A stretch of DNA of 64,000 nucleotides from Euglena gracilis (lineage: Eukaryota). The position numbers and the translations under genes were made by a program. The notes beneath the pieces were generated by a model. That model worked only from the letters and a program-made list of their open reading frames with translations. It ran no database searches and was not told where the DNA came from. The DNA lies in assembly GCA_039621445.1 (NCBI GenBank), contig CP154954.1, positions 11,960,716-12,024,715 of the forward strand. The letters run 5' to 3'. Each line of letters opens with the position of its first letter. Position 1 is the first letter of the stretch. Positions 24,501-55,600 of the stretch are shown here, piece by piece.

Positions 24501-25544
24501 CATTTCAAACTCCTCTACAGCAGGCTGGAAAATCCATCAGAGGAAGACGCTTACAACCTGGTGGCTGAAAAAATGCCTGAAACGCAACGCAGAAGCTGCA
24601 TCAGGGAACAGGACCGCAGAAATCAGGACAGACCGACACTGAAACTGAAAGGGGTCACGAACATTACAAACGTCCCAGATGCAATGACGGAAGACGTTCG
24701 TGACCTGGTGGCAGCAACTGTGGGTACAGGTGAGAATTTTCAGGTGGCACGAGACGGACAAAACTTCAGGATCCAACTGCACAGCAGAAGAGCTGCTGAA
24801 CTGCTCCTGATGAAAAACGGTTCAACGCTGCTGACTGGACACAAGCCACAATTCACACAGGTACAGGCCAAACTGACATTGGACGAACTGTTCCAACGGG
24901 TGGAAACCGAACTCAGGTGCCAACAACAGTCAGACTCCCTAGGTAGGGGGTACAACGGCTGGCAGAACCAACCTCGTGAAAACAGATCACGGTCGATGGA
25001 CCGCAGGGGTTACGTCAGGGAAGTCAAGGAGGAGGAGAAAACAAAATCCAGAAGTCGGACACCACCTTCCAGATCCCGACCCAACTCCCCTGGACCTCGA
25101 ACCCCAACACCTGAAAAACCCAGGCCCCCTTCTCCACGCCAGCAGGTGCCCATGGCAGTTTCAGAACAGCCTGGCCAGGGACGGTACACCAACTGGTCAG
25201 ACTGGGGACAGAACGACTGGGGCAAAGGCAAAGGAAAGGGGAAAGGTCAAAACTGGGGTTCAACCCAAAACTGGAACCAGAACCAGAACTGGAATCAGAA
25301 TTACGGCAAAGGCTACGATTCAGGAAAGGGATACAACTCTGGGAAAGGATACGATTCTGGGAAGGGGAGCGGGAAAGGAAAAGGCAAAGGGCAGCCACAG
25401 CCACAGCCAGCAGCAACGAAAACAGAACCACAGACTCAGCAAACCAACTCACAGGAGCCAGCCAACCAGCCACAGGGACAGCCAAAGGCAGAAGCATCTT
25501 CCAGCAACCGCTGGCAGCCAGTTCAAAACGCAGAACGGAAGTGA

Positions 25545-35230: not shown

Positions 35231-35520
35231 CATGGGTCATGATGGCCATCATGGGGCCTGATGGCCATCATGGGTCATGATGGCCATCATGGGGCCTGAT
35301 GGCCATCATGGGTCGTGATGGCCATCATGGGTCATGATGGGCATCATGGGTCGTGATGGCCATCATTGGCCATGATTGGCATCATGGGTCATGATGGGCA
35401 TCATTGGTCATGATGGGCGTCATGGGGCATGATGGGCATCATTGGTCATGATGGCCATCATGGGTCATGATGGCCATCATGGGTCATGATGGGCATCATG
35501 GGTCATGCTGGCCATCATGG
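35231..35520. repeat. 19-bp minisatellite (about 15 units), consensus GATGGCCATCATGGGTCAT
   Basis: GATGGCCATC recurs at 35241, 35260, 35279 and onward; adjacent units form the palindrome CATGATGGCCATCATG. Confidence 0.9.
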
Positions 35521-36494
35521 CCCCGAGGGGGGGAGGGGGGGTTCGGGGGGGGTTTCCCCCACGGGTAAGCTTCGCTCTTACCCATAAAGGGATAAGGGCT
35601 CAGAGACCCCCCCATATAAGACCCCCCCTCGAAGGTTAGGCAGGGGTGGGGGGGGGGGTTGGGGGCTTCGCCCCTAAAGGAATTTCAATGGAGAAACTTC
35701 ACCGGTGAAGTTCACCGGTGAAGTTCACCGCCATGTATTTCCAATGAAGACGGGGGGGTGGGGGGGGTCCCGCCCGAAAAACCCAAAGTTCACTGCCTGA
35801 TCTCCCTCGGGAGCCAAAATCCCAGGGGGGGTCTTATATGGGGGGGCATGGTAATTACGGTTGTCAGCCCCGTTGCACAACTTTTTTGTTTTCCCCGTGA
35901 CCCGAGAATCGATCCTTCGCCATTCTTTTTTTAAAGCATTTTTTTAAAAAAACAATGAACTTTCATGCATCCGCCCAATGCACCTTCATACCCAAAAATG
36001 GCCAAAAAACTTTTCCTTTGAAAGAAGTGCCAAAAACTGGTGCATTTCCCCACCCAAAACGGAATTTTCTCAAAAATGGCCCAAAAAAACTTCATCCCAA
36101 AGACGTGTTGGTCAAGAAAATCCTAACAAAATTCCCTTTCAAAAAAATGACCAATTTTATCACGATGCAACGTCATGGATGTTGCCTCCCGGCCACCTGC
36201 AAAGTGGCATACTTCCCCCGTGACCCCCCCCCCGCCCCGTGACCCCCCCCATGACCCCCCCCCCGCGACCCGCACCACCCCCTTAAAAAAAGCATGTTTT
36301 TTTGTTTCAAAAACAACAACCCGTTTTTTAATATTTTTTTTTCATCTGTCTCGGGGGGGGTTGGAAGTGGGGGGGGAGGGGGGGGTCCCGGGAGGGGGGG
36401 GGTTGGAACTGTACAGGGGGGGAGGGGGGGTCCCAAGGTTTGACCAACTGTACTGCCTTGTCCCCAAATGTAAAAGCAGCTCTTAGAATCACAA

Positions 36495-36563
36495 GGCGAG
36501 TGGCATAGTGGTACAGCGTTTGTCTGTCAACCGTGTGGTCGTGGGTTCGATTCCCACCTCGTC
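36495..36563 (+). pseudogene. tRNA-like relic or tRNA-derived SINE head (GTC at the anticodon position)
   Basis: A-box TGGCATAGTGG, T-arm GTGGG-TTCGATT-CCCAC, acceptor GGCGAG/CTCGTC, T6 terminator; anticodon stem does not pair. Confidence 0.6.
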
Positions 36564-36948
36564 TTTTTTGGTTCCACTTTTGTGGTAAAAATCGCCCCCC
36601 CTATTTTGGTTTTGTTTTTTAACCACCCACCCCTATTTCATTTTTTTTCACCCCCCCCCCCACTGGCTGTAGGGCTGTTTCGATTAATCGATAATCGATT
36701 AACCGTTCGTCATCGCCGATTAATCGAATCGTTCGACCCATGGCGATTAATCGTTCATTGTGGACATAAACCACAATAGGCACAATATTTGTTGAAATCA
36801 ACAAAAATTAGTGGGGTAGTCAATCAGATAGCACACTGCTGCTGGTACACCATGAAAACGGTTGTTAAAAGTGGCCAATGAGTCACCGAACGTGCCCGTG
36901 AAACATCGCGCGATTCTGATTAAGATACAGCAGTTCCTAATAAGCTTC

Positions 36949-37265
36949 GATTTGCGAAGCAGGCTATGAATGGGTAACAACAACCATCACCTTACGCCCA
37001 ACAAAGTTTCAGCTGAAGGTGGTAAGTACAACGGAAGGGTGTATGTACAAACCTACACTACTCTACGATGGAACATCAGCAAAGCAGCGGAGGAGTTAGT
37101 TTGATTGTAGAGGCTTACTTCCAATAAAGGAATCTGTGAAGAAATATTTACAGATTCAGTTTTGAATTCTTGTCGCGTAACGGTTCGCAAATCTCGAGAT
37201 TGGTGAATCTCTGGATTTGCGAAGCAGGCTATGAATGGGTAACAACAACCATCACCTTACGCCCA
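36949..37265 (-). repeat. 3' split-direct-repeat block B1-A2-spacer-B2
   Basis: Exact repeats read directly from the sequence; A2 and B1 abut with a one-base gap. Confidence 0.9.
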
Positions 37266-37284
37266 TCTGTCTGTATAAGGGCGA

Positions 37285-38620
37285 TCAGAGTGATAAAATT
37301 CCAATATACTTCACAACAGAGAAGGAGGTGCATAAATGATCCCACAATTCAGAAGCAGTTGTGACTGCTTGATGATGATCTCTGGAGAAAGGAATTCTAG
37401 AAATGGGGTCAGCGGGTTGGTTTTGGGAAGCACACCAAAGGATGTGCGTATTTAATTTTGACCAAAGCAGGCGATTTAATATTCGGCGTGTAATTGTACA
37501 CAGCACCGGACTACTTAATTGTGGGCGGAGATTGGTGGCTATGTAGCAAACACCCATATTATCTCCTATATAAGTCAAGCTGTTCCAATGAAGCCGTACA
37601 GCCAGATTGGTGGCGTAGTCCAATGCAAAGTATTCAGCTTGTTGTTGTGAGGAAACATAGGGAGGACACAGAGATAATTTTGCACCGAAGGATGGAGAGA
37701 AAAGTCCAATATAGTAAGAATCTGCAAACCTTGCAGCATCTCCACAAATGACGTGTGTAAAGAAAGGTGGTGGAATGGGATCAGTTGCTTCCCAAGGGGA
37801 ACAAGAAAGTATAGTGGTTCAAAAAGTGAATACACCATTTTGTTGGAAGGTTGTGGAAGGTAACGTCTCCCATGCCAACGGTGAAGATACCAGGAGCGGA
37901 GAATAGATGTGATACCAGGAAGGGGTCGGACAGACCATAATAAGTGTCCCAAAATGACATCAATACGCTTGTCAAACACTGGTATTAAGGATGCCAAAAC
38001 GGATCGTGAAATTGTACAAAGAAGGGTATGGTGTGTATTGGTAATTTGTCGTTTGTTGAGCAAAAGCAATTTTCCAAGCCACTTGATCTGTTGGCTGGGG
38101 TTGAGACATGATTTTTTTGAAATAATCAGCGAATTTTGTTGTAGCACAGAAACGAAAAATTGAGTTATGTCGTTGCATAGTGAAAAAGTGGTTGCAAGTA
38201 GAAAGACATCGTCGTAATAAACAAAATACCAAAATTCGGAACGATACAATAAAGAAAAATGTGAATTTTCCAAAGAGGAAGAGAGTAAAAATTCTAAGGA
38301 CTTTTGTGCAATAATTGGAGAAAGATTCCAACCAAAGGGGGGTGATGTGGAGGAAAAATTGTCGATTCTAAAAATATGTTGAGCTTCTTGTGGTAATTGT
38401 AAAGACCAAAAAAAATTTGTAAGGTCGAGGGTAGTAGCAAATAAAGTTGAAGGAGGAAATTTTCGAATGATTTCTGCAATGTCTGAAAGGGAAGGTAAAT
38501 GAAAAGAAGGTAACGGGGTCGGTGTCAATTGATTCAGACCTCGTAAGTCTGCAATAAAAGCTGCTTTTTCGGAAGATTTGGGTCTCAAAAAAACTGATAG
38601 GTTAGAAGGTGAGTGTTTTG
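37285..38620 (-). pseudogene. Reverse transcriptase plus RNase H of the YR element (frameshift near 37810)
   Basis: FIADLRGLN, LDLTNFFWS, PFGWNLSP, VYYDDVFL, IKWLG; RNase H CGDAA...QQQAE...IGDN...NQPADPISR. Confidence 0.9.
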
Positions 38621-39955
38621 AGTGTTTTGAGTAGAGTGTTTTGGGGATGGGATCAAAAATTTGTCTCTCACAAGAGAGGATAACAAAATTTTAGTCAGAG
38701 ATTTTGTTTTTCTTGGCTCAAAAGGGGGTGGAGGGATGTATGTTCGAAGGTGGTTAAGGAGACTGTTGGGTACATATGTGTGCCAAATATGAGGTGGTAT
38801 CGAAAAATGTCCACGTAATCCCAAACCTCTTGCGGCTATGTCTGGTGTGACAGAAGAGGGAGTTGTTTCATGAAGGTAATATTTGATAAGGAGCAAAATC
38901 AGCCATGAAATGGTGTGAAGTTGTAACAGGAGCTTCAGAAAAGCATGAAGGGTGATTTGTATGTTCAAAGCATTTCGTCTTTGTAGAAAAATGATGACGA
39001 GTTGGCGTAATCTCAAGAAAATTTGTTGTCGGGTTAAGGGAAAAGGGAGCGCAGAACGAGAAATGTTTCCGGCTATACCCCAAAGAGTATTACGGAGCTT
39101 GTGGTTCAAGATGGGTGTGGTTAATGGATGTTTAGGTTCGTGATCGTTTGTTTTTGGAGCATTTGGGTTCGAAGGTTTGGGGTGAATGCCAGAAACATTC
39201 AGGGCCTCCGGGCAAAAAAGTTGCTTCGAATGGGGGTAGGACGGAGAAAGGAGCCCATGGCAAGGTTTTGGGCCAGAGGAGGGGTGTATCGTCATATCCA
39301 ATGTATTTTTTGGCGGTGTCTGGACTGGCCCAACGACACCAATGCTGGATGACATTGATGTCGATGCCGAATTGAAACATTCCACGTGCCGTTGCTCGAC
39401 TGATAGAGTGAAATGAACAATGTTCGGCGTCTGTGTGGGTGAAATATTCACGGGTAAACTGTTGTATTTGATTGATTGAAAAGAAGGGGGTAGTGGGATC
39501 GGTGAAAGGATGGGAACGCTTCCAAAAGGCGATCCATGCCATAATGAATAGTGGGGGACTTCTGAAGATGCGTTGTTGATTGTGTGGTGGTTGCTTTTCT
39601 GGCATGAACCAGATTCCACCACCTGCAGGGGTGGACAGATTGTCACATGGTCTAATTGAGGCCACTTCACCAATACGTAGTCCGAGGGATAATGCCACAA
39701 GGAATACGCACAAGATGAAATGGGTTTGCTTAAGGTTACAAACTTGTGCAATATGTGTGAAAGATGTGGGGGGGAACCACGTTTTGGTGGGAATGAGGCG
39801 CATTCTGTCTGCCGCTCTGGAAAATCTCCAGTATGTTTGTGGAAATAGGGGTGTTGTCCAGCCCAATGTGTGTAATGCTTGGAATGCTGAAAGAGTGTTT
39901 CGAATTGTGGAGGCGGCACACTGTTTTTGTATAAATGTTGATATGTATTGTTGGA

Positions 39956-42624
39956 CAGCAGTGCGGTCGTCAAAAAGGAGGACATTTGTCAGGGGTTTTT
40001 TACAGACATTAATCCTTGTCAGTCAGAAATCCAGGGAGTTTTTGACGGGGTTTTTGTCATCGGGCTTGCGTCGAGGCCATTAGAGCACTTTTCCCGCTCG
40101 TGGGTCCGTCGTTCCGCCGAAATTTATTCCCCCCCTTTTCACCCGCCATTTTGATGAAGTGCCGTGGTGGTTCTCAGTGCCTGGTGCTGGGCATATCGGA
40201 CTGTCCCCAAATGAACGAGCCCCGGTGAAGGACGTTTTTGGGGGGGGGGGGTAACAAGGAGTCCTGCTGCGTGCCTTTTTCTTTTTAAAAAAAACACTGC
40301 AGAGCACACACAAAAACGGGCAACTGATCAACGAATTTTTTTTGTGTTAAAAGAGAGGGGTAGGGGGGGGGCGTGTTGAGAAAACGGGCGGTGCCACCAC
40401 CTACCAGTTTGGCTTTGAGAAATGGAAGAGAACACTGCCACGGACCCCGAAAAAGACCCAGGTGGTGGCACCCCACGTCCCTGGTGATGGCAGTGGTCCA
40501 TTTAAATGGCACTGTTCCAGCGCACGTAGCATTCCCTATGGAAATGCTGCTCTGTAAGGGAATGTCGATCAGCTTGTAGATGGCCACACGCTGACCACAG
40601 CCGCTCCACGGCACCCGTGGAACTGGGGAGGGACGTCAGCCTGCCCCCCAAGGGGGCCAGCACGTTATCCGCAAACAAACTCCCTGACAGGCTTAATCTT
40701 TCACCAACCCCAGGGCCAGGGGGGGTGTGCATACAAAAAGGAAACCGAACAAACAGCCGCTGCATCACATTTTAAAAACGGGCTTTTCAAAAAAACCGTG
40801 TCCTGAATTTTTTTTTTGAAAAACCGACGGGGAGAACGGGCAATTTCAAAAAACTAACCCCCCCCCCTGGTGTGCAAAAAAAACTTGAAATTTAAGCCTG
40901 TTCCAAAAAGCGTACGGGGGAGTGCATGGTTTAGCGAAGGTCTTGGCAGCCTCCCAGCAACCCGTCATCTCCACCCACGCCAATAGGTCTGCAACTGTGG
41001 GCACCGTGGCGTCCGGAAGGAGGGCGGGACGCCTTCAGAGTCCCTCAGGGACGTACAATTTTTTTACCAACCCCCCCCCCGGGGGTCACTTCCACTTTTC
41101 CCAAGACGAGTCATTTTTCCGGTGGGGGGGGGGGGAGGGGGGAAGGGGGCCACAGTGGAAATCAAAGGACCAGAGAGCTGAAAGAAAGCCAAAACCATTT
41201 CCCGGGTATACTCAGGGGGGGGGGACAAAGCCATTCGTTCCATCAACACTGCCCGGGGCGCCCTGTTCTGGCAGTGTTCTGCAGGAAGTCGAACACCTCG
41301 CGCAAGCGCTTGCGTGTCCCCCACAGGCCTGTTGATCACAGCTTCTCTGAGGTACTGGCCGTCCGCAACTCTTTCTTCGGTGTACACCACTCGCGGGTAG
41401 CCCCGGCGGAAGAATTCCTCCACCTGCTCGGCCTTCGCGATAGTGCTTTCCCATAGTGAAAGGACGTCTTTGGCCAGCAACTGTCCTGTGCAGTCAGAAA
41501 AAAACCAACACTTAAGCTAAAACTTGAAAGTCACCTGTGTGGGCATGGCAGTTGAGAGGTATGACAGCGTCTGTGTCGAAGAGGTCCCGGAGGGCGGCTT
41601 GGCAGTTCGCCGCGTTGTCCGCCTGCAGAGCGATTACGTTACACCCCAGGCCTTTCAGTTCGGACATTACGTCCCGTATACTGTCCTGCAGTTCGGCACT
41701 GGTATGTCTTTGCTTGAACCTGTGAAGATGCACATTTTGAAAGATGATCCTTTGTGAAAAAGAAACACACCGCTTGATCTGGAACAGAATGGGCTGTTGC
41801 TTGCAACTCAGGGCGGGGCCACGCAAGTGCATGTGACATTATGAAAATTATGTAATGCAATGGCGTGAATGTGCACCATGAACTCAATGGTATGAAAATG
41901 AGCACCATCTTCCCACATATCAAGGGCCACCGCAACGTATGGTAACTTCACCAGTATTTGTTCCACTCTCTGAGAACACGAAAACAAACAGGGATAGGGG
42001 ACTGGGATACACCTTCTTGATGTCCATGTACACATCTAGTTGTCTCTTCTGCATTGTCTCCCTGCACGGCAGCCGGAAGTCTGCCCGCAAAACCGCCAGG
42101 AATTCCTTCATTTCCGGGCAGCTGACCACCTCCAGGGGTACACCTCTCTTCATCTGCAGCAGGCTCAGCCTTTCTTCTGCCAGCCTTTGTTGCGCTGCCG
42201 TGAAAGGCCTATCGCCGAACGTGCAAATCAGGGCTTGCTTCTTCTTCGCCGGCTGTGGCGTCAGGTTCTCCTCGCCAGTGGCTTCGACGGCCCGCCGTGC
42301 CCTGACCATGTGGCTGTGACGGACGTAATGCAACGCACATCGCGTGGCATGGTGGGCAGATTCCCACATACAGTGTTTGCATCTCACCTTGATACATCTT
42401 CCAGTTCGATCCCATTCAATTTCTGTAAACTGGTCCCACTCAGCACGCTCAGGACGTCCAGACATGTAACAACCGTGCTACCCTGTGAGGAGCGGACATT
42501 AATTCAAGCCGGGCGATTCCTTATGAGAAACGCGAATACTTGACACCTGACAAATGTCTAAATGTCATATTTATGTCAAATGTCTGTCAGAAACCCTTGT
42601 CATTTGCCAAAATTTGCACTGCTG
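39956..42624 (-). mobile_element. hAT DNA transposon, internally truncated
   Basis: TIR CAGCAGTGC / GCACTGCTG; 8-bp TSD TTGTTGGA at 39948-39955 and 42625-42632; transposase exons inside. Confidence 0.9.
41250..42465 (-). pseudogene. hAT transposase 5' part (BED zinc finger, first catalytic Asp, DN..N and CxxH motifs) with three short GT-AG introns
   Basis: W..F...CKHC...H, VALDMWED, ADNAANCQAA, CHAHT; introns of about 43-52 nt (for example 41970-42012) join the frames; C-terminal half absent. Confidence 0.8.
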
Positions 42625-42888
42625 TTGTTGGATAAGAACAGTGATTGGTATCTTTCTGTCACAAGTGAGTCGGAATTTTTCAAACTGAAGAATTTTTTGT
42701 TTATAAGTTCTGATGGTTGTGGGTGCCCAAGAGTACAAGAGTGCTTGTTGTATGTTTTGGGGACGTTGATGGTGTTCGAAAGCGGAAAATTTGGTGAGCA
42801 TAGATTCCCACTCAAGGACACTGGGGTGGATGTCTGAAATTTGTGTTGTTGAGGGGTAAGCTGATATAGCTTCCCCTTTTGGCAGGAG

Positions 42889-43761
42889 TCATTTGGAATT
42901 CTGATTTTCACATTCCCAATGCCAGTGGTATCGGGAACAACGAAAACATTTTTTGGGCGGTGGAAATTTTACATTCCACAAGGAACCGTCCCGGGAAATA
43001 TAAAATTTGTCTTCCCCAAGAATAGCAAAATTTTGTAACCCATGAGGGGTGTGTTCCTCATATACTTTCCCACCTCGTCGAATTAATTCATCCACCCCAA
43101 AATTCACTGGTGGGTGAATCCGTTGTACTGAAGAGGACGAGGATTGTAAGAAAGAATTTGAGGGAGATTGTGACGAAGGAAATGATGAGGAGACATGAGA
43201 AGAAGGAGAAAATGAATGAAAAGGTGATGAGGAACGTAAAAATTCGGACGAAAAAGAATTTGTTGTTTTGAAGGACGTTTTGTAACAGAAAAAAGTGTGC
43301 ACCATGAGTTTCCACAATTCTTGAAGTGGGTCACCATCTTCTTGTATGTCCTCAAAACTGGATTGAAAAATCTTGGACATTTCACGCATCCAAACGGGAA
43401 GGTGTTCAAATTTTTGAAAGGTTAACACAGATTCAAGTGAAAAATTTTGTGATAAATATTCTTCAGAAGAAGTGTTGATGGTCATCTTTTGAACTTTAAG
43501 TTCAGCAATTTCCTTTTGAAGCATGGAAATTTGTTCCAACAATGCGGAATTTTGACTTGCGGAAACAGCGGAATTAGGTGACCAAAGAAAATGGTCATCC
43601 TGAATTTGTAAAATTACATCTGCATACACTTCGTATGCGACAAATAAAGGGAGTGCATCGTCAACCGATAATTGAAAAGAGGTGCCAACAAGGAGTGTCT
43701 GCCACCAGGAAGGTGGCCAGGTTTGAGAGCGAAATTTTAGTTCAATTTTTTTGCGTGACAT
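42889..43761 (-). CDS. Gag-like protein of the YR element with a C-terminal Cys/His knuckle
   Basis: ATG 43761 MSRKKIEL; short coiled-coil, Ser-rich linker, PPPKKCFRCSRYHWHWEC; lies directly upstream of the YR. Confidence 0.7.
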   Translation of the reverse strand: MSRKKIELKFRSQTWPPSWWQTLLVGTSFQLSVDDALPLFVAYEVYADVILQIQDDHFLWSPNSAVSASQNSALLEQISMLQKEIAELKVQKMTINTSSEEYLSQNFSLESVLTFQKFEHLPVWMREMSKIFQSSFEDIQEDGDPLQELWKLMVHTFFCYKTSFKTTNSFSSEFLRSSSPFHSFSPSSHVSSSFPSSQSPSNSFLQSSSSSVQRIHPPVNFGVDELIRRGGKVYEEHTPHGLQNFAILGEDKFYISRDGSLWNVKFPPPKKCFRCSRYHWHWECENQNSK

Positions 43762-43834
43762 TTCTATGGAAGAAATGGACTGCAAAAATTCGTTTGCAAA
43801 GGAGGTGCAAAATTCTTGAAACGGAACAAATTGC

Positions 43835-44445
43835 GGGTCCCGGATTTTGTTCAATGTCACCTGAGAGGAGCAATAGTTTTCGTATATTCCAAAAGGTATG
43901 TTTGGTGTTGATATGGAAAACATAAATGGGCCAGGGGGGGTGGGCAGTATACGACGGTTGGAAAAAATAAATATTGGTTCATTCGGGAGGAGTAAATGCT
44001 GAGTGGAAATTTTAAATAAAAATGCAAGGGGATATGGATATATGACCGGAAAGAGCAAGACGATATGTACGGGTTGATTTTTCAGTCGATCCAGCACACG
44101 ATTCAACAAATGAAATGGGGGGTTTGCCCAGATTAATTTTTCTGAAGACCAATTATGCAAAAAAGCGTCATCGAAAATCGACCAAAATTTTGGTACGCGA
44201 CAATTTTCAGGTGAAGCAAAAGCATCAATCGAGGGTAAAGGTAAGTCAAAAAACGCAAAAATTCTGTAAAAATACTTTGGAATCAAAGCATAATCTTGTT
44301 GGGCCTGCTGAAAATAAAGATTCCTTGAAGGGCCAGGATTCATTTGAATGTCTCCACAAAGCAGCAGAAAAAGGAAGTTTAGAAACGTAAGAATTTTTAA
44401 AAAAAGGGGTAGCAGAAAAAAATGTTCGGAATAAATGATTTCCAA
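43835..44445 (-). CDS. Dam-like N6-adenine MTase flanked by two 2A-like peptides (one-base frameshift in the G7 run 43934-43940)
   Basis: LLLCGDIQMNPGP (44367-44329), DYAL...IDAFAS...DAFLHNW...WANPPF (44124-44113), then LLLLSGDIEQNPGP (43876-43835). Confidence 0.82.
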
Positions 44446-46931
44446 AAGAATGTTTTGATTTTAAGGGTTAAAAGAATAGTGTACCAAAAGAAAAATCGGT
44501 ATACCATCAAAAAAAACTGCAAAGTTTCCAAACTGCTGAAAAGTTTTTTGACTGCTGTTGTTAAAAACAAACGTGAAATTTTTTTAACTTTCAAAAGGAG
44601 AAATAACAAAAAACACAAAAACAGGGGTGCTCCAGACAGCAAATGTTGTGCAGAAGGGGGGTAAGCCATTTGTGTGGGTTTTGAGGGGAAATGTTTGTAA
44701 TCTTGCAATTTTTCAATGAAGTCAGGGAAAAGCCCATACACAGGTGGTAAAAAAATAATGGAATCATCAATCCACTCAAAAATAGAATGTCTCAACACAA
44801 CATGTTGAAGTTTGTCCATCCCAGCATTTTGATGTAGATAAAATTCAAGTTTTTTGGCAAATTTTAAATAATTTTGGTAAAGTTGTTGTCTTTCACTTGG
44901 TGAGATTGTTACAGAAAACAAACTTGCTATGTCTCCAACATTGCTTTCAGGTGCCACCATTGGTGTAGAAACTGGGGGGGCAGGGGGGGCGGCCGCCCCC
45001 CCCCCGAGATTTTTTCGCCCCCCCCCCCCGAGAATTTTTTTGACTCAAAAATTTTTCGCCCCCCCCGAAAAAAAGTTACCCTCAAAAAAATTTTTGTAGG
45101 TTGTGAAAAATTTCTTTCAAGATTAAGAAACCAACTTTTCATTGAACTTTCAGGTGTTTTTGCTATTGGACATCGCTACCGTCTCGCCGCCCTTCGGGCG
45201 GCCAAACAAGCCCAAAACTCATGGGCTTGGAGGGGAAATGAGTCTTCGTATTTTCAATTTGGGGTTGTTGTTTGTGAATATCTCCACCGCCGTCTCGCCG
45301 TCCTTTGGTGGAAACAGGAAACACATGTATCTTGACTAGGCTTCTAGCATTCAATATTCTAAAAGAGCAAACCAGTTCTTTTGTTGTTCCAAATCTGTGT
45401 TTTCTGGTGCGAAAAATCATGCTTTCAACCCAAAAAAAAACAAAAAAATGAATGCTGCAGAGATAAAAAATGAACTTTTTTCTAAAAAAAACATTGCAAA
45501 AAAAAATTCCCCAAACCCTCCATGACGTTTTTTTTTGTTTTTTTTAAAAAAACTTATTATTTTTAAAAAAACATGTTTTTTTTGTTTCAAAAAAAACAAG
45601 CCGTCAACCTTGCTTGAAACTGGCAAAAAAAAACGTCCCATGTTAAAGAAAGAGTCCCCAATGAACTTAACGTGACCCCCCCCTATATGGCACCCCCCTG
45701 GGAGCGTTTTTGACCCCCCTGGCGACAATTAGGGGGGGGTGACAATTAGGGGGGGGGGGTTACTCAATTTACCCTACATGTCCATGGGTCCACGAGTAAC
45801 CCCCCCCCCTAATTGTCGCCCCCCCCCAAGGGGGGGGCGACTATTAGGGGGGGGTGACAAATAGGGGGGGGGTCACGTTAGTCGGCCTACGGCCTCCTCC
45901 GGGGGGGGGGGGGGCTGCCGCCCCCCGGACCGTTCTTTGTCACGTTCAATGCCTTCTTTCAAAAAAAGTGCTACCGTCTCGCCGCCCTTCGGGCGGCAAA
46001 AAGAAAACAACACATACAAACAACATTGGTAATAGGGGTTTTTTCAGTCATGGACCCCGGGGGGGGGAGGGGTGGTAGGGTGGGTGGGTCCGGCCGAGCC
46101 CCCCCCCCCTCCCGGGGGGGGGGTCACCCCAGGGGGGAGTGGGATATGCTTTTTGGTGCCGAAAATTTTTGAAAAAGTGCTATTTTTGGAATTTTTCTGT
46201 TTATGGCCGGCGCTAACTTCGCTTCTGGCCCAGGTTCTCGCCCCCCCCGAGAAAAAATTGTTTCTACACCGATGGGTGCCACAGAGCAATCAACAGCTGT
46301 ATTGACTTCTGAAAGGTCCACAGTATCAAGCATGGGAGGAGGTAGCGGAATAAAAAAATTGTCCTGATAAGCAGACTGATAAAATGCAGGGTAATTTTGT
46401 TGAACAGAAGGTAAAAAAACTGATACTTGTTGAATCCAGGAAAGGAGTCGTTGTTTTTGGTGATCCACAATTTCATCAGGAGATGAGTTCAAAATTTCAA
46501 TCATGTCAGAGAAATGTTGAGAATGTTTCTGTTGCAGAGAAACATTTTCCCAAATTTGAGAGGGACTGTCAGAAAGATGAATTGAGGAGTCTGATTTGTT
46601 CTCTGCAGAATTGAAAGAATCAGGACAATTTTGTACAAGCTTGTTCAAAAGACTCAAAGGCACAGGAACACAATCTGGGGGAAGGGATTGTGCAGTAACA
46701 TTCTGTTGTGCACTGATGTGTGGGTTGACAAAAAGAGGAATTAGCAGCATTCAAAGGAAAGCTGTTTGGCTGTTGTGGAACACAGGTTCCTGTATAAGTT
46801 GATAATTGGTTTGGGAGAGAAGCTCCAAAAGGAGCAGGTAATACTCCAAAAGGAGTTTGAATAACTCCACAGGGAGTCTGCACAGGTTGGTTTTGGTTTG
46901 TCAACATTGGGATTCCAGAATAAAGATTCAA
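44397..46931 (-). pseudogene. Unknown ORF of the YR element (Pro/Gln-rich start, hydrophobic C-terminus), split by the 44958-46274 insertion
   Basis: Removing the insert joins DCSVAP|ESNVGD in frame (ORFs 46124-46750 and 44397-44960); no recognisable domain. Confidence 0.55.
44958..46274. mobile_element. Non-autonomous hAT-type element (1.3 kb)
   Basis: TIR CATTGGTGTAGAAAC / GTTTCTACACCGATG (1 mismatch); 8-bp TSD GGTGCCAC at 44950-44957 and 46275-46282. Confidence 0.9.
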
Positions 46932-47026
46932 AGGAAAATGCGAGTAGGGGGCTGGGATCAGGGGAACAGATTGTTGTACAACTGCAGGGGTGACAGGAGG
47001 GGTAGGGAGGGACCTTAGGCGTGATA

Positions 47027-47368
47027 CTAGGTTGTGATGAGCTCTTGGCCAGCACTGTCTTTTCTTGCTTTCTTTCCAGTCCCAGTTTCACTATAATCTC
47101 TCTTCTTCTTCTTCTGGTCTTCCTTGAACGGTTGTCCATCGGGGTGTGCTACCCTGAGAGCAGCAGGGTGCTGGCCTTCTGCACGGGCATCACCAACTTC
47201 AAAACTGACTTCCTGTCCAGGATGTAGAACCGGGACTCCAACTCCCAGTGTCAGCAGCTGACTCACGTGTATATAATACGTGGTAGCTTCACCAGAGTCG
47301 GTGTCAGATGATTGAAGAAAACCAAAACCCCTGTGGGGAAACCATGTTGCCACGGTGCCAGTCGGCAT
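47027..47368 (-). CDS. Cold-shock domain protein with a basic tail; first ORF of the YR element
   Basis: MPTGTVATWFPHRGFGFL (RNP1), YIHVSQL (RNP2), LHPGQEVSFEV...AALRV; KKKKR tail; starts about 100 bp inside repeat A1. Confidence 0.85.
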   Translation of the reverse strand: MPTGTVATWFPHRGFGFLQSSDTDSGEATTYYIHVSQLLTLGVGVPVLHPGQEVSFEVGDARAEGQHPAALRVAHPDGQPFKEDQKKKKRDYSETGTGKKARKDSAGQELITT

Positions 47369-47467
47369 CTTGAAAAACCAAAGGTGATCCAAATTAACTT
47401 TCAGACTTGACAGAGGTGCAAGTTCCTGTTGGTCGGTATTCTGCAGCCCCGACCGGCTAAGACTTCA

Positions 47468-47569
47468 AGGCTTACTTCCAATAAAGGAATCTGTGAAGAA
47501 ATATTTACAGATTCAGTTTTGAATTCTTGTCGCGTAACGGTTCGCAAATCTCGAGATTGGTGAATCTCT
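47468..47569 (-). repeat. 5' repeat A1 of the YR element
   Basis: Identical by eye to 37111-37212. Confidence 0.92.
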
Positions 47570-47898
47570 CGTTCTGCCATGTTCTGCCAAAAAAACGTTC
47601 TGCCATGTTGAAAGAGAATGGATACAAAAATTCGTCGACGGGCACAAAAAGAAATGGTCTGTGTTCGATATTACAATTTCTCAGGAAGGATTCATAATCA
47701 AAAAAATCCAAAAATCGGAAGGGACCAATTAATCGTTAGTCGTCCGAGACACCCCGATTAATCGCGATTAATCGTTCGCCGGCCCAAAACGATTAATTGG
47801 CACAACCCTACTGGCTGGAGTTGATGGCTTCCACAAAATCCAAATTCCATAAAATATGGCTGGCACCCTTTAGTGATGATTCTGAGAATGTATGCATC

Positions 47899-47971
47899 GC
47901 TCACATAGCTCAGTTGGTACAGTGCCTGCTTCATGACAGGGAGGTCGCGGGTTCGAACCCTGCTGTGTGCA
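47899..47971 (+). pseudogene. tRNA-like relic (CAT at the anticodon position)
   Basis: TAGCTCAGTTGGTA A-box, GCGGG-TTCGAAC-CCTGC T-arm, acceptor 6/7 paired; D and anticodon stems mispaired. Confidence 0.6.
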
Positions 47972-48041
47972 CCTTTTCCTCATATTTTTGCCTTAATGTA
48001 TAATATTAAAAGAATTTTCTCCTACAAATATGGTTAAAAAG

Positions 48042-48116
48042 TGCACACACGGTGGGGTTCGAACCCACGACCGCTCGCTTACTCAACGAGCGCAGTACCA
48101 ACTGAGCTACATGTAC
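48042..48116 (-). pseudogene. tRNA-like relic (AGT/Thr at the anticodon position)
   Basis: GTACATG-TAGCTCAGTTGGTA..., anticodon stem CTCGT/GCGAG, GTGGG-TTCGAAC-CCCAC, T-run downstream; U33 replaced and D-stem broken. Confidence 0.6.
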
Positions 48117-49629
48117 GATGCCTATCAAAAGCGTCTGAATAGATAAAGGACCTTTGGACGACAGAATTTGTCCCCCCCCAAACAAAGTGGCCAGTGCCTT
48201 CTCCCTTGTCACCCCCCAAAGTGTCCGTGTCCCCCCCCCCCCCGAGGGTGGACATTTCAGGGTCCCACGGCACCCTGGCCACTTTGGGGGGGGTGAGGGT
48301 ATATGGTTTTTGAGGTTGGGGGAGGGGGCCAAGGTGAATTGTTCAAACAAAATAAATTTCATAAATTTCATAAATTTCATAAATTTCAGTAAGTTACCAT
48401 AATGTAATTTATAAATCTTAAATTACGCGAAATTCGCAATGCTACCTATGGGCGCTTTGGAAAAACGCAGGGAGGTGGCCTACGCCTGGAGGAAAGTCCT
48501 ACCGAGACTCGAATGTACCACCCCCCCCCCCCCATATTGTCCCCCCCCCATATTGTCCCTCGGCCCGGCCGACGAGGGGTTTTTTTGGCTCGGCCAGAAA
48601 TTTCCTTTGGTACCCCCATATTGTCCCCCCCCCCATATTGTCATGTCGGGCCTCCTGGGGAGAGGTCGGTGGGACAATATGGGGGGGGGGGGTAGGACTC
48701 ACGTGCTCAAGGTGTTTCCTAACTTTCATGACCGAAAATGAAAGGAAAGGTTTCACGGATTTTATCTTTCTTTCAGAGCAGTTTTCACAAATTGAACAAC
48801 CCTGTCACGGGAAACTGTCGTGTTGGACAAGGTTCCCGAGTTGCGCTGTTCCAATTTGGAAAGCAAGTTAAATTTATGTACTGCAGAAACAATGCAAGCC
48901 GTTAACGTTACAAATGCATGTGTGACTAGTGTTGCTGCTGCACTCCCTCCACTTTGGTAGATCACCTCTGATCTTTCAAATTGTACAGGTAATTTGGCGG
49001 GACTTCAAACAGCATTTTGAACTTTTCTGTAGCCAGCAAGTGTTCCCTCCAACCGGGATGGTGTGTTTCTTTATCGGATCTGGCATTTCATTGTGAGACA
49101 AGTGGCAATTGCTTTTGAGAAAATTGCAGTTACGTTTTGAGACAATGGAAAGGATTTTGAGACGGGTGGCAAGTCATTTTGAGACTGATGGCAGACAGTG
49201 AGCAGTTATTTTTGCAACCTTCAAAAACGTTGTAAACTGACCTTGTTTAAAGTGTTTATAATTCCACACACAGACTTTTTAAGTTCAGTATGGCGGCCCC
49301 ACATCCTTTTTTGCACTTCCACTGCCGACACATTTGAGGTGCTACAATGGGAGCTGGTGCCTCAAGCGGGCCCGGTGTGCCTGCATGCCTGCCCCACCTC
49401 TAGCATACAACATTGAGCAGGCCATGGAAAACCATGAAAAAAGCGCCAAGCCAACCGAAGGAATCTCCCTTTTCCTGGTCAATGTCGTGGGATAAAAAAC
49501 CATTTTTTTTCCAAGCCTTTTTCCCTGAGCCAACACCATCTAACCCCCCCCCCAACTTACCCTCACCCCCCTCAAAGTGCCTCCACCCAAGGTGACCAAT
49601 TTTTTTTGGCAAATGTGGATTACCCTCAC

Positions 49630-52600
49630 CAGGGTGTGACGTAGAGCTCTTTGGGACACCACCCCAGCCCGGCCCGGCGCCCGGCGCGGCCCGGCGGCCT
49701 TGGCCCGGCGGCACGGCCCGGCGGCCCGGCGGCCCGGCCCGGCTGGCGGGTCGAAAACTGCTCATTTTCGGCTCAAAAACAGGTTTTACGGGTCCTGGAG
49801 GCCAAAAAACATTGTTCTGGGCAAAATTTTTTTTCGATTTTTTTCGACTTTTTTGGCCCGGTTTTGACCCAAAGTCAATGGGTTGGTGGCCCAAAACGGG
49901 GCACTGGAGGGTCGAAAAACGCTCATTTTTTTGGCTCGAAACCACTTTTTCAAGGTCCGGGAGGTCAAAAAACATGGTTTTGGGCGAAAAAAAAATTGAA
50001 TTTTTTGACTTTTTGACCCAAAAATGGCTAAGTCCACCGGCCAGGGGGGCGGGCCCCAGACAGGGGGGGCAGGGGGGGGGGTTCGGGTCGGAAAATTTTT
50101 TTTTGCCCAAAAACACTTTTTTTGATGTTCTAAAGTGAAAAAAAGTGTTTTTGAGCGAAATTTTTTTTCAAAATTTTGGGTCCCGACCTGCCACCCGGCC
50201 CCCCCCCGCCCAACCGCCCTTGAACCCCTGCAGGGGTCCCCTATTACCCAAAACTGGCCCAAAATCGCACAACCAGACCCCGGGAACCCCAAAAAACGGT
50301 CAACCCCCCCCCCCAAACCAATGATTGATCCCCTGGTTTGGGTCCCAACTCCCCGTCTAGCCCGAGATACGGCCAATTTACGGTTTCGGGCCCCGAAATG
50401 GCCAAAACTGGCAAAACGGGCCCAAAACCCCCAAAACGGCCGTATCTCGGGCTAGGCGAGGAGTTGGCCCAAACCGCGCATACCACAGGCTATTCACTTT
50501 GGGGGCCACGAAATCCAGTCACATCGATAATCCCGGGGTTTCCGGACCTGCCCAGGGGGGGGGGGGCGGGGGGTGGGGGGCCCGTCGCCGGGGTGGTAAG
50601 CTTCGCTCTTACTCTAAAGAGATAAGAGCTCAGCGACCAGGGTGTGACGTAGAGCTGAGCTCTTTGGGGGACCACTCCGGCCCGGCCCGCGAAAAACGCT
50701 CATTTTAGGCCCAAAAACATGTTTTCTGGGTCCGGGAGACCATAAAACATCGTTTTGGGCCAAAAAATTTTTCGCTTTTTTTCGACTTTTTTGACACGGT
50801 TTTGACCCAAAATCAATGGAGCTTTGGCAGGGGGGGGAGGGGGGGTCCCGAGGTCAGTTTTTTTTGCATTTTTTGGCACTTTTTGCTGTACTGTCTCAAC
50901 ACAGGGGGGGGGGTCCTGGGGTCCCAACTGTACTGCCAACCCCCCCCTCAAAAATTGGCCAAAAACCGGCGCCGAAGGCGCCGGAAAAATTTTTTAGGGC
51001 CTTTTTTTTTGGTCCAAAAAGGCCATTTTTGGTGTCAAAATTTTCATCTGTCTCGGACCGTGCACCAGGGGGGGGGTCCCAAAAATCCCAACTGTACAGG
51101 GGGGGGGAGGGGGGGGTCCCCAGAAAACCCCAACTGTACTGCCGTCGCCCCAATGGGTTGGCGAACCAAAAAGGGGCCCTGGTGGGTCAAAAAACGCTCA
51201 TTTTCAGCTCAAAAACACTTTTTCCGGGTCCGGGTGTCCAAAAAACATGGTTTTGGGCGAAAATTTTTTTCGATTTTTTTTTTCGACTTTTTGGCCCGAA
51301 AACGGCTAAGTCGGACAGTGGGAAAAGTGTACAAAACGGCCATTTGGACCGAAAAACGGCCATATCTCGGCCCAGGCGCGGAGTTGGCCCAAACTGCGAA
51401 CACCGGTGGATGGGGCGTCCCAAAGTTGTGGAATGAGGTACTCTTTACTTTTTCTCAACTCCCCAGCGTTTTCGAGATATTTTGAATTTTTCGATTTTTT
51501 GACCCCAAAATGACCCCCTGTTGCCGGTCCAACAAACTTTCTTTGAAAAAAAAACGGAAGACAACTTTTTTGCTCCGGCCATATCTCCGGCCTGGCGTGG
51601 AGTTGCGGGCAAAGTGAGGGCTCTGGACAACCTAGGGGGGTGTTTCCCCCGCGACCCCCCCGCGACCCCCCCCCCCCGCGACCCCCCCCCGCGACCCCAC
51701 CCTGAGCCCGATTCGGGTTTCCAAAAAGGACAAAAAAATTAATTGCATTAATTAATTAGGAATTGCATTAATTAGGAATTTGCCGCTGAATTAGGAATCA
51801 AAAACATGAAAAATTGGTCCCAAATTCCTAATTGTACCTATTTTCGGACCTAAATGGCTCGCAAATTCCTAATTGGGATCTAAATTTAGAGGATAGAATG
51901 ACGTCACACAAGTCACGCATGACCTGTCGCGAAACCCATTTCCCCCCCGCCCCCCCCCCCCCCCCCCCCCCCGACCCCAACACCCCTTAGGGACCCTCTC
52001 CTAACCTATAGGCTATTAACTTTTCGGGTCCGGAAATCAGGTCACATCGATAATCCGCGGGGGCCCGAGCCTACTCAGGGGGGGGGGCGGGGGGGTTAGG
52101 GGGGTTTGGGGGGGGGGGGGGGTAAGCTTCGCTCTTACTCTAAAGAGATAAGAGCTCAGCGACCCAGGGTGTGACGTAGAGCTGAGCTCTTTGGAAGACC
52201 ACCCCGGCTCGGCGACCCGGCCCAGCCCGGCCCGGCGGCCCGGCCGGCCGGCGGCCCGGCACGGCCCGGCCCGGCCGGCGGCCCGGCGCGGCCCGCCCGG
52301 GTTTGACCCAAAGTCAATGGGTTGGCGGCCCAAAACGGGGCGCTGGCGGGTCGAAAAACGTTCATTTTTGGCTCGAAAACACTTTTTTCGCGTCCGGGAG
52401 GTCAAAAAACATGGTTTTGGGCAAAATTTTTTTTGAATTTGTTTGACTTTTTGACCCAAAATTGGCCAAGTCCACCGGCCAGTGGGGCAGGTGGACCTGG
52501 GGGGGCCTGGGGGGGGGGGGTCCGGGTCGGAAAATTTTTTTTCGCTCAAAAACACTTTTTTTGATGTTCTGAAGTGAAAGAAAGTATTTTTGAGCGAAAA

Positions 52601-55600
52601 AATTTTTTTAAAATTTTTTGTTCTGACCTGTTACCTAACCCCCCGTCGCCCAGCCGCCCTCACACCGCCCGCTGGGGTCCCCGAATACCCAAAACTGGCC
52701 CAAAATCGCACAACCAGACCCCGGGAACCCCAAAAAACGGTCAACCCCTCCCCCCCCTGAACCTAATGATTGACCCCTGGTTTGGGTCCCAACTCCCCGT
52801 CTAGCCCGAGATACGGCCAATTTACGGTTTCGGTCCCCGAAATGGCCAAAACTGGCAAAACGGGCCCAAAACCCCCAAAACGGCCGTATCTCGGGCTAGG
52901 CGAGGAGTTGGCCCAAACCGCGCATACCACAGGCTATTCACTTTGGGGGCCACAAAATCCAGTCACATCGATAATCCCGGGGTTTCCGGACCTACCCAGG
53001 GGGGGGGGGCGGGGGGTGGGGGGCCCGTCGCCGGGGTGGTAAGCTTCGCTCTTACTCTAAAGAGATAAGAGCTCAGCGACCAGGGTGTGACGTAGAGCTG
53101 AGCTCTTTGGGGGACCACTCCGGCCCGGCCCGCGAAAAACGCTCATTTTAGGCCCAAAAACATGTTTTCTGGGTCCGGGAGACCATAAAACATCGTTTTG
53201 GGCCAAAAAAATTTTCGCTTTTTTTCGACTTTTTTGACACGGTTTTGACCCAAAATCAATGGAGCTTTGGCAGGGGGGGGGGTCCCGAGGTCAGTTTTTT
53301 TTTGCATTTTTTGGCACTTTTTGCTGTACTGTCTCAACACAGGGGGGGGGGGGAGGGTCCTGGGGTCCCAACTGTACTGCCAACCCCCCCCTCAAAAATT
53401 GGCCAAAAACCGGCGCCGAAGGCGCCGGAAAAATTTTTTAGGGCCTTTTTTTTTGGTCCAAAAAGGCCATTTTTGGTGTCAAAATTTTCATCTGTCTCGG
53501 ACCGTTCGGCACCAGGGGGGGGGTCCCAAAAATCCCAACTGTACAGGGGGGGGGAGGGGGGGGTCCCCAGAAAACCCCAACTGTACTGCCGTCGCCCCAA
53601 TGGTTAGGCAAACCAAAAAGGGGCCCTGGCGGGTCAAAAAACGCTCATTTTCAGCTCAAAAACACTTTTTCCGGGTCTTTTTTCTGGCCAAAAAACATGG
53701 TTTTGGGCGAAAATTTTTTTTCGATTTTTTTTTCGACTTTTTGGCCCGAAAACGGCTAAGTCGGACAGTGGGAAAAGTGTACAAAACGGCCATTTGGACC
53801 GAAAAACGGCCATATCTCGGCCCAGGCGCGGAGTTGGCCCAAACTGCGAACACCGGTGGATGGGGCGTCCCAAAGTTGTGGAATGAGGTACTCTTTACTT
53901 TTTCTCAACTCCCCAGCGTTTTCGAGATATTTTGAATTTTTCGATTTTTTGACCCCAAAAATGACCCCCTGTTGCCGGTCCAACAAACTTTCTTTGAAAA
54001 AAAAACGGAAGACAACTTTTTTGCTCCGGCCATATCTCCGGCCTGGCGTGGAGTTGCGGGCAAAGTGAGGGCTCTGGACAACCTAGGGGGGTGTTTCCCC
54101 CGCGACCCCCCCGCGACCCCCCCCGCGACCCCCCCCCGCGACCCCACCCTGAGCCCGATTCGGGTTTCCAAAAAGGACAAAAAAATTAATTGCATTAATT
54201 AATTAGGAATTGCATTAATTAGGAATTTGCCGCTGAATTAGGAATCAAAAACATGAAAAATTGGTCCCAAATTCCTAATTGTACCTATTTTCGGACCTAA
54301 ATGGCTCGCAAATTCCTAATTGGGATCTAAATTTAGAGGATAGAATGACGTCACACAAGTCACGCATGACCTGTCGCGAAACCCATTTCCCCCCCGCGAC
54401 CCCCCCCCCCGCGACCCCCCCGCGCCCCCCCCCCCCCGCGACCCCACCCCCCCCTAGGGACCCTCTCCTAACCTATAGGCTATTAACTTTTCGGGTCCGG
54501 AAATCAGGTCACATCGATAATCCGCGGGGGCCCGGGCCTTCCCAGGGGGGGGGGCGGGGGGGTTAGGGGGGTTTGGGGGGGGGGGGTAAGCTTCGCTCTT
54601 ACTCTAAAGAGATAAGAGCTCAGCGACCCAGGGTGTGACGTAGAGCTGAGCTCTTTGGAAGACCACCCCGGCTCGGCGACCCGGCCCAGCCCGGCCCGGC
54701 GGCCCGGCCCGGCCGGCGGCCCGGCACGGCCCGGCCCGGCCGGCGGCCCGGCGCGGCCCGCCCGGGTTTGACCCAAAGTCAATGGGTTGGCGGCCCAAAA
54801 CGGGGCGCTGGCGGGTCGAAAAACGTTCATTTTTGGCTCGAAAACACTTTTTTCGCGTCCGGAAGGTCAAAAAACATGGTTTTGGGCAAAATTTTTTTTG
54901 AATTTGTTTGACTTTTTGACCCAAAATTGGCCAAGTCCACCGGCCAGTGGGGCAGGTGGACCTGGGGGGGCCTGGGGGGGGGGGTCCGGGTCGGAAAATT
55001 TTTTTTCGCTCAAAAACACTTTTTTTGATGTTCTGAAGTGAAAGAAAGTATTTTTGAGCGAAAAAATTTTTTCAAAATTTTGGGTCCCGACCTGCCACCC
55101 GACCCCCCGTCGCCCAGCCGCCCTCACACCGCCCGCTGGGGTCCCCGAATACCCAAAACTGGCCCAAAATCGCACAACCAGACCCCGGGAACCCCAAAAA
55201 ACGGTCAACCCCTCCCCCCCCCTGAACCTAATGATTGACCCCTGGTTTGGGTCCCAACTCCCCGTCTAGCCCGAGATACGGCCAATTTACGGTTTCGGTC
55301 CCCGAAATGGCCAAAACTGGCAAAACGGGCCCAAAACCCCCAAAACGGCCGTATCTCGGGCTAGGCGAGGAGTTGGCCCAAACCGCGCATACCACAGGCT
55401 ATTCACTTTGGGGGCCACAAAATCCAGTCACATCGATAATCCCGGGGTTTCCGGACCTACCCAGGGGGGGGGGGCGGGGGGTGGGGGGCCCGTCGCCGGG
55501 GTGGTAAGCTTCGCTCTTACTCTAAAGAGATAAGAGCTCAGCGACCAGGGTGTGACGTAGAGCTGAGCTCTTTGGGGGACCACTCCGGCCCGGCCCGCGA

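Follow-up and report, generated by a model that had tools for sequence, protein, structure and literature searches.

How might a retroelement without a recognizable protease free an enzyme that it encodes in the middle of a long open reading frame (ORF)? This question is raised by a stretch of 64,000 nucleotides (nt) of Euglena gracilis DNA (GenBank assembly GCA_039621445.1, contig CP154954.1, forward-strand positions 11,960,716 to 12,024,715), called the window here and numbered from its first letter. It contains a tyrosine-recombinase retroelement of the DIRS order whose first ORF (ORF1) carries a Dam-like adenine methyltransferase (MT) module with a 2A-like motif on each side (2A1 before it, 2A2 behind it). 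In the mechanism known as StopGo, the ribosome at each NPG/P (the slash marks the skip point) would free the nascent chain without a Gly-Pro bond and would then carry on. Judged from motif conservation and predicted structures, two functional StopGo sites probably bracket the MT module in ORF1 of intact copies of this DIRS-order element, a reading to which we give a probability of roughly 80%.

Both motifs lie on the minus strand, where an earlier note made from the letters of the window had placed them, one before and one after the MT. 2A1 (LLLCGDIQMNPGP; NPGP at 44329–44340) precedes the MT module within an open frame of 523 amino acids (aa; 42889–44460, minus strand) that reads ...FLFLLLCGDIQMNPGP at this site and then enters the module. 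2A2 (LLLLSGDIEQNPGP; NPGP at 43835–43846, minus strand) follows the module in the -1 frame relative to the MT, where a short frame (43742–43978, minus strand) holds it as ...RKLLLLSGDIEQNPGP / ...PPWPIYVFHINTKHTFWNIRKLLLLSGDIEQNPGP. The features concerned are the following.

44329–44388, minus strand: 2A1, TFLNFLFLLLCGDIQMNPGP, with a putative skip point between G (44332–44334) and P (44329–44331).
43838–44331, minus strand: Dam-like adenine MT module with the 2A2 tail, the putative released product, 165 aa in intact copies (PF05869, NPPF).
43835–43900, minus strand: 2A2, HTFWNIRKLLLLSGDIEQNPGP, the same in P0001 and P0003, with a putative skip point between G (43838–43840) and P (43835–43837).
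43934–43940, plus strand: G7 run (C7 in the coding sense), which lacks one base relative to intact copies; frame change at 43939.
43828–43830, minus strand: T3 run, one T longer than in intact copies; compensating shift, frame change at 43829–43836.

A Leu-rich stretch abuts the motif at both sites (FFFLLLC and RKLLLLS). Chance is not an explanation of these two motifs: translated in six frames, the window contains D[VI][EQ]xNPGP twice, and none of 200 block shuffles contains it. The shorter NPGP occurs four times in all six frames, twice outside any 2A context. Set against the consensus D(V/I)ExNPG/P, 2A2 reads GDIEQNPGP in the window and in three other copies (P0001, P0003 and P0004), while 2A1 reads GDIEMNPGP in P0003 and has a Q codon at 44344–44346 in the window, where P0003 has E.

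These other copies show what an undamaged arrangement looks like. When 5.8 billion proteins were searched with the 523-aa frame, one of 7,281 candidates matched: P0001, a protein of 487 aa from a short-read contig that is 93% identical to the window frame and whose 90% cluster has four members. P0003 is an intact ORF1 of 1057 aa on a 3.9-kb contig, and its first site is the canonical FFFLLLCGDIEMNPGP. P0002 (113 aa), a Euglena gracilis transcript from EukProt, covers only the N-terminal part of ORF1. In both P0001 and P0003, which are derived from short reads, one reading frame covers the MT, PTPPWPIYVFHINTKHTFWNIRKLLLLSGDIEQNPGP and the downstream protein. P0001 reads ...RRILPTPPWPIYVFHINTKHTFWNIRKLLLLSGDIEQNPGPAIVPFQEFCTSF..., continuing in frame into the downstream protein; both copies read ...RRILPTPPWPIYVFHINTKHTFWNIRKLLLLSGDIEQNPGP at 2A2 and encode PTPPWPIYVF across the C-run. 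The earlier note had proposed that one base added to the G7 run would bring the second motif out of its other frame, and had advised that other copies be compared for this base and for E versus Q at the first site. P0001 and P0003 read exactly with that base, so that 2A2 is in frame with the MT and the downstream protein, and P0003 has E. The note's reading of the first motif as an E-to-Q variant describes the window copy correctly; the Q is a change private to this copy and not a family feature.

What the earlier note overlooked is the extra T in 43828–43830, just after NPGPAI, which returns the frame. It lies about 100 nt after the missing C of the C-run, at a point where P0001 and other intact copies read NPGPAIVPFQEF just after 2A2. 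Because the loss in the C-run and the extra T compensate each other, 2A2 is hidden while the long frame of the window stays open; 2A2 is frame-shifted here and hence outside the MT frame, whereas in P0001, P0003 and relatives it lies in frame between products. Programmed -1 frameshifting, at an A-run before the stop of the 2A2 frame or at the C-run, was considered and dropped, because the 2A2 frame is -1 from the MT frame and P0001 and P0003 read plainly in frame. P0004 reads the C-run in the third frame, and its 2A2 differs at two upstream residues (...WNTQK...); run length therefore varies among copies. The C-run before 2A2 is thus read three ways in four copies (C7 in the window, in frame in P0001 and P0003, and differently in P0004), which marks an indel hot spot at the MT/2A2 junction. 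Contigs of three DNA sequencing runs, compared with the window over 42800–47600, have +1 nt across 43885–44245 (X1 contig record 3) and -1 nt across 43754–43880 (X1 contig record 2). They also lack 44950–46274, joining 44949 to 46275 with eight letters that fit both sides.

The window locus is a dead copy. Tiling of P0003 over the window places five frame changes relative to intact ORF1 at ~47036, ~46710, ~44400–44421, 43939 and 43829–43836, two of which bracket 2A2. Further lesions are a 9-nt deletion, the E-to-Q change at 2A1 and an insertion.

44950–46274, strand not assigned: nested insertion of 1,325 nt that breaks ORF1, a very high-copy repeat flanked by an 8-nt duplication, GTGGCACC.

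Summed contig depth within this insertion is 10^3 to 10^6, compared with ~10 to 2,000 in its flanks, and the insertion is packed with long G/C and A/T homopolymer runs. Runs of at least five identical bases make up 642 of the 4,480 bases of the region. The decay is real, and not only homopolymer sequencing error, because the frame changes at ~47036 and ~46710 lie outside homopolymers and the insertion is absent from other copies. With Q for E at 2A1 and 2A2 out of frame, the device is broken in this copy, and since the copy is dead, no skipping occurs at this locus. The earlier note had envisaged a polyprotein from which the MT is freed at both ends; that reading is supported at the level of the family, but not at the window locus, which is a relic.

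The bracket is also kept by relatives far outside this family. A HMMER search with P0001 against 1.84 billion cluster representatives gave 526 proteins at E ≤ 1e-3, and motifs were counted in the best 150 of these, which are mutually <50% identical. NPGP occurs in 66 of the 150, the full D[VI]ExNPGP in 58 and at least two full motifs in 17; P0046 has five NPGP. Over the 48,793 residues of this set there are 100 NPGP and 80 full motifs, compared with 0.94 (maximum 4) and 0 in shuffles. Placement relative to the catalytic NPPF motif is regular, with the first-site NPGP a median of 67 aa before it (range 32–87, n = 34) and the second-site NPGP a median of 95.5 aa after it (range 91–139, n = 30). 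Both sites occur in 14 of 35 stored proteins that have room on both sides, or in 12 of 33 once cluster-mates are merged. Alignment A1 comprises 12 sequences and has a mean column identity of 25%; its invariant columns are the MT motifs (NPPF and an upstream DxFA), the G, D, E, N, P, G and P of 2A2, and the G and P of NPGP in 2A1; N and the first P of the latter are kept in at least 90%. E is present at site 2 in 27 of 27 representatives and at site 1 in 25 of 30, the others having Q (twice), H (twice) or A (once). L is the commonest residue at position -8 across all sites. As with the other sequence checks that the earlier note recommended, the outcome of the scan for motifs of the GD[VI]ExNPGP type agreed with its prediction: both sites are conserved in relatives that are only 25–40% identical.

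P0051, P0077 and P0080 have Dam, then 2A, then reverse transcriptase (RT) within one ORF, and several relatives have three to five sites between modules. The classical RT-RNase H-Dam relatives P0092, P0125 and P0142 and the Ty3-type Dam element P0131 are without NPGP. In the lineage of the window element, the MT has moved from its classical place, fused behind RT/RNase H, to a 2A-delimited cassette ahead of Gag or RT. On an MT-domain tree of 89 rows from a quick search, in which many rows are too short to score for 2A, the 2A label is clustered (17 changes compared with 29 in shuffles), and starred branches force at least four changes. Alignment A1 used as a protein query returned two matches, both already known. 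A metagenome scan with alignment A1, in which the 2A motif itself served as the pattern, listed at least one locus (L001, 3447 nt); it is an ordinary non-LTR (long terminal repeat) retrotransposon with an N-terminal 2A (LILLSGDIETNPGP) followed by endonuclease and RT, and does not belong to this family.

Intact ORF1, as seen in P0003, encodes in order a cold-shock-like domain (residues 3–67), a Pro/Gln-rich and then very hydrophobic region, 2A1 (ending …LLLCGDIEMNPG/P), the MT, 2A2 (ending …LLLLSGDIEQNPG/P) and a protein of ~320 aa. The outer two parts correspond in the window to the following.

47168–47368, minus strand: ORF1 start (M1 at 47366–47368) and cold-shock-like domain; P0003 tiles map from 47368.
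42892–43834, minus strand: third ORF1 product, "Gag-like", conserved in relatives, with a C-terminal Cys/His knuckle and CFRCSRYHWHWEC at 42913–42951.

The Pfam cold-shock family PF00313 matches the window ORF with E 6.7e-6 (26.3 bits, just under the cut-off of 27) and P0003 with E 1.8e-4. Identification of the central module as a Dam-like adenine MT, as in the earlier note, is based on a Pfam Dam match, the NPPF motif and a predicted MT fold. PF05869 matches aa 77–123 of the 523-aa frame (E 7.3e-7, 29.5 bits against a cut-off of 28.1), the MT motifs of this frame are DAFASPEN and WANPPF, and 111 of 155 stored proteins carry a catalytic motif of the (D/N)PP(Y/F) type. The AlphaFold2 model of P0001, for which 150 relatives were aligned (mean predicted local distance difference test score, pLDDT, 83.6), has a compact MT fold at residues 17–146 with pLDDT >90, a helix at 147–160 and then low pLDDT up to residue 170. 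Helix and low-scoring stretch correspond to 2A2, which is predicted to lie exactly between two well-folded domains. Beyond it are a helical domain (175–361), a disordered Ser-rich linker and a beta-rich C-terminal domain. The top Foldseek rows for the model are N6-adenosine/adenine methyltransferases, and these matches are weak; the best is 6irw_B, a cap-specific adenosine N6-methyltransferase (E 3.6e-4, template-modelling score, TM, 0.22 over the three-domain model).

The third product has no Foldseek match at E ≤ 0.001, and a VIA wide fold search with it gave generic helical-bundle rows only (best Z 6.8 over 76 residues). Since there is no clear fold match, the label "Gag-like" is based on position and the Cys/His knuckle only. 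Residues 540–1057 of P0003 had no usable match in a protein atlas. The ~90–100 aa before 2A1 (P0003 470–570; window ~44360–44660, minus strand) are Phe/Leu-rich, with 19-aa Kyte-Doolittle means of up to 2.3, and look like two or three membrane-spanning helices that would end the cold-shock-domain product. This segment is not conserved in relatives.

If both sites work as proposed in intact copies, one mRNA would give three separate proteins without a protease. The first would be a nucleic-acid-binding cold-shock-domain protein ending ...NPG, the second the MT on its own, beginning with Pro and carrying a 2A tail of ~25 aa, and the third a Gag-like protein starting with Pro. In 2A peptides, D12, E14 and N16 contact 28S rRNA (PMC12846837), and a poly-Leu helix ahead of GDxExNPGP, such as both sites have here, is reported to drive skipping (bioRxiv 10.64898/2026.06.17.732966). 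[quoted passage not shown] For this lineage, the 2A bracket would be a concrete answer to the question of how protease-less elements of the DIRS order process long ORFs.

Several points weigh against this reading. The window copy itself cannot work. Of the 35 proteins long enough on either side of the MT, 21 are without one site or without both. Any breadth across taxa would be conjectural, since the 20 relatives examined all derive from Logan, ENA or JGI assemblies. In one RNA run (~5% of reads), no read fell on 42800–44892 and reads fell only on the 5' cold-shock part at 46986–47468, where they differ from the window sequence; the sole named transcript in the P0001 cluster, P0002, is likewise limited to the 5' part. 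Other eukaryotic retroelement Dam domains expressed in dam-deficient E. coli gave no rise in N6-methyladenine (6mA; bioRxiv 10.64898/2026.05.21.726589). Finally, a high-throughput preprint reports that protein abundance fell with most of the retrotransposon 2A-like peptides that it tested, namely in 70% of the ORF1p and 59% of the ORF2p occurrences (bioRxiv 10.64898/2026.06.17.732966), and separation may therefore not be their only or main effect.

The abundance data lead to the alternative that survives best, which we nevertheless consider unlikely: both sites could be mainly translational throttles, at which stalling and drop-off would decrease first MT and then Gag-like output or keep ORF1 expression low, with separation partial or a by-product. 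Poly-Leu stands directly before the motif at both sites, and a poly-Leu helix before GDxExNPGP is reported to drive skipping and to lower protein output, with most tested retrotransposon peptides falling in reduction classes (bioRxiv 10.64898/2026.06.17.732966). Q or H in place of E recurs at site 1 in 4 of 30 representatives, and E14Q is reported to be partially active, retaining 56% or 26% of activity (PMC12846837). A pure throttle has no need to be placed at domain borders, yet each site coincides exactly with an edge of the MT fold. The three to five sites between modules in several relatives form a polyprotein-processing pattern, and site 2 is strictly canonical, with its E never replaced. 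Throttling and separation are also compatible with each other.

Far less probable is that the GD(V/I)ExNPGP stretches are linkers or other recognition sites, such as a motif for docking or targeting or a cleavage site for a host protease, and that ORF1 is used as a fusion protein. Separation is a prediction from sequence here, and the hydrophobic ~90 aa before 2A1, with Kyte-Doolittle values of up to 2.3, could function independently as a membrane anchor. The conserved columns, however, match the StopGo consensus exactly and none other nearby, the count of 80 full motifs in the best 150 of 526 relatives compares with 0 in shuffles, and experiments have shown activity of the consensus in viruses and in non-LTR elements (PMC3708506; PMC12846837). 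An origin of the motifs or shifts in chance, homopolymer assembly errors or chimeric assembly is largely refuted and most improbable: although both shifts around 2A2 are in homopolymer runs (C7 and T3) of a run-rich region and P0004 reads the C-run a third way, the motifs recur in independent short-read contigs and dozens of distant relatives, the frame changes at ~47036 and ~46710 are outside homopolymers, the 1,325-nt insertion is flanked by a target duplication and missing from the contigs of three runs, and the copy is truly decayed whether or not the two homopolymer shifts are genuine.

The bracketing of the MT by two StopGo sites in intact copies thus remains the preferred reading, and it has wider implications. 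We tentatively suggest, at slightly less than even odds, that a large undescribed lineage of protease-less DIRS-order elements regularly processes its polyproteins by StopGo, and that in it the Dam-like MT was moved from Pol into a 2A cassette and made free. If so, the MT, free of RT, could act in trans on the cDNA of the element or on host chromatin (6mA), and not within an RT complex. Since relatives have up to five 2A sites between modules, 2A could then be a plug-and-play joint by which retroelements of Euglenozoa and of other groups exchange modules. The putative skip sites would also define the natural ends of the mature MT, which is of interest because expression of other retroelement Dam domains in E. 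coli failed to show activity. In addition, the family is a library of about a hundred natural 2A variants, including Q and H at the E position, from protists in which tools for multi-gene expression are scarce.

The rest of the element agrees with the DIRS order, and its parts lie as follows.

36949–47569, minus strand: whole tyrosine-recombinase (DIRS-order) retroelement, ~10.6 kb including nested insertions, with split direct repeats and the coding content between them.
47468–47569, minus strand: split direct repeat A1, 5' end (repeat comparison of 47468–47577 with 37111–37220).
36949–37265, minus strand: 3' repeats, namely B1 (37214–37265), A2 (37111–37220) and, after a gap of ~110 nt, B2 (36949–37000).
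39132–40022, minus strand: tyrosine recombinase ORF (Phage_integrase PF00589, E 3.8e-6, 27.2 bits against a cut-off of 27.1).
37288–39988, minus strand: RT and RNase H-like ORFs (38585–39988, 37575–38690 and 37288–37818), which overlap the recombinase ORF.

Repeats A1 and A2 (110 nt) are 97% identical and repeats B1 and B2 (52 nt) are 100% identical; B1 abuts A2, which gives the order A1...B1-A2...B2. A split-direct-repeat layout of this kind has been described (PMC6681497). On the minus strand, ORF1 is followed by a GC-richer stretch (~40100–42560), the recombinase and the overlapping RT and RNase H-like ORFs. RVT_1 (PF00078) matches within 37575–38690 with E 3.3e-10, and there is a weak RVT_3 match in 37288–37818 (E 0.003, 17.9 bits against a cut-off of 21.6). 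The earlier note had called the element protease-less, and this description stands: RT and tyrosine recombinase were found, and no protease, DDE integrase or rve family was present among 13 ORFs scanned against Pfam, although a very divergent protease could escape a profile.

The GC-richer stretch at 40100–42560 (minus strand; GC 0.53 compared with ~0.43) has Cys/His-rich ORFs (e.g., 41920–42477) and may be a second nested insertion. A hAT-type insertion was suspected here from the Cys/His pattern and set aside; there was no Pfam match at E ≤ 1. Transfer RNA (tRNA) genes lie ~330–470 nt from the element ends, tRNA-Gln(CTG) at 36493–36566 (plus strand) and tRNA-Thr(AGT) at 48043–48116 (minus strand), and a tRNA-like call with a 2-nt anticodon is at 47899–47973 (plus strand). 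The element may have inserted into a tRNA gene cluster. Just outside its 3' end, at 35174–35580, is a tandem array of ~21 copies of a 19-nt unit resembling CATGATGGCCATCATGGGT, which is partly self-complementary. Long arrays of a ~2.4-kb repeat rich in G/C homopolymers occupy 48000–64000, and ORF fragments beginning AQKHVFWVRETIKHRFGPK... recur in them at 50709, 53152, 55617 and 58188.

The window also holds two Ty3/Gypsy-like LTR copies (~1–10 kb and ~21–32 kb), each of which encodes a Dam-like domain (3938–4270 and 25845–26177, both plus strand). These domains are 27% identical to P0003 residues 607–713 (E 1e-9 and 4e-9). No 2A motif is found beside them; the only plus-strand NPGP, at 25117–25128, has a non-2A context. 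Both copies look like the Dam-LTR elements of a recent preprint (bioRxiv 10.64898/2026.05.21.726589).

The recoding signal itself has a wide distribution. RNA viruses and APE-type non-LTR retrotransposons, among them the trypanosome elements L1Tc and Ingi, are known to carry 2A-like sequences (PMC3708506). Through recent large 2A screens, one Ty3-like RT and a number of ORF1p-like and ORF2p-like proteins have joined the list (bioRxiv 10.64898/2026.06.17.732966). The non-LTR elements (L1Tc and Ingi, and animal elements of the Rex1, L2, CR1 and Crack clades) likewise carry D(V/I)ExNPGP inside a retroelement ORF (PMC3708506; PMC5814959). The hosts of L1Tc and Ingi share the phylum Euglenozoa with Euglena, and the presumed role is alike, namely to separate products from one ORF. 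In the non-LTR elements, 2A occurs once, close to the N-terminus of ORF2p or ORF1p, whereas the Euglena element has two sites around an internal enzyme and belongs to the DIRS order. Cellular 2A would thereby be extended from non-LTR elements to a second retroelement order in the same phylum, which bears on the origin of 2A and on its movement between elements and viruses. Polyproteins of picornaviruses, iflaviruses and other RNA viruses share multiple sites, a helical Leu-rich upstream part and NPG/P separation, the last of which is predicted in the present case. In contrast to those viruses, the Euglena case is a cellular retroelement with no viral protease alongside and a DNA methyltransferase-like cargo. 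Some relatives, such as P0054 (KGRGSLLTCGDVEENPGP), appear to match the Thosea asigna 2A over its last 17 residues.

The Dam retrotransposons of E. gracilis and other protists share the Dam family and the organism with the present element and form mixed DIRS/LTR Dam clades (bioRxiv 10.64898/2026.05.21.726589); the main text of that preprint, supplements aside, has no "NPGP" or "skipping" and mentions cleavage once, in passing. Among the matches listed in a full-text literature search, none connects elements of the DIRS, Ngaro, PAT-like or tyrosine-recombinase kind to 2A or StopGo. The main texts of four 2A surveys contain no methyltransferase, recombinase or "Euglen-", and that of the one survey searched for DIRS has 0 occurrences of it; supplementary tables of these surveys might list such peptides. 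Compared with DIRS1-like and PAT-like elements that have an MT, in which it is fused behind RT/RNase H, the Euglena lineage has its MT in ORF1 ahead of the Gag-like protein and delimited by 2A, and its N-terminal cold-shock-domain protein is unusual beside the classical members of these groups. The recoding signal is thus known from other systems, and what is new is the element order in which it occurs and the arrangement, which would excise an internal enzyme on both sides.

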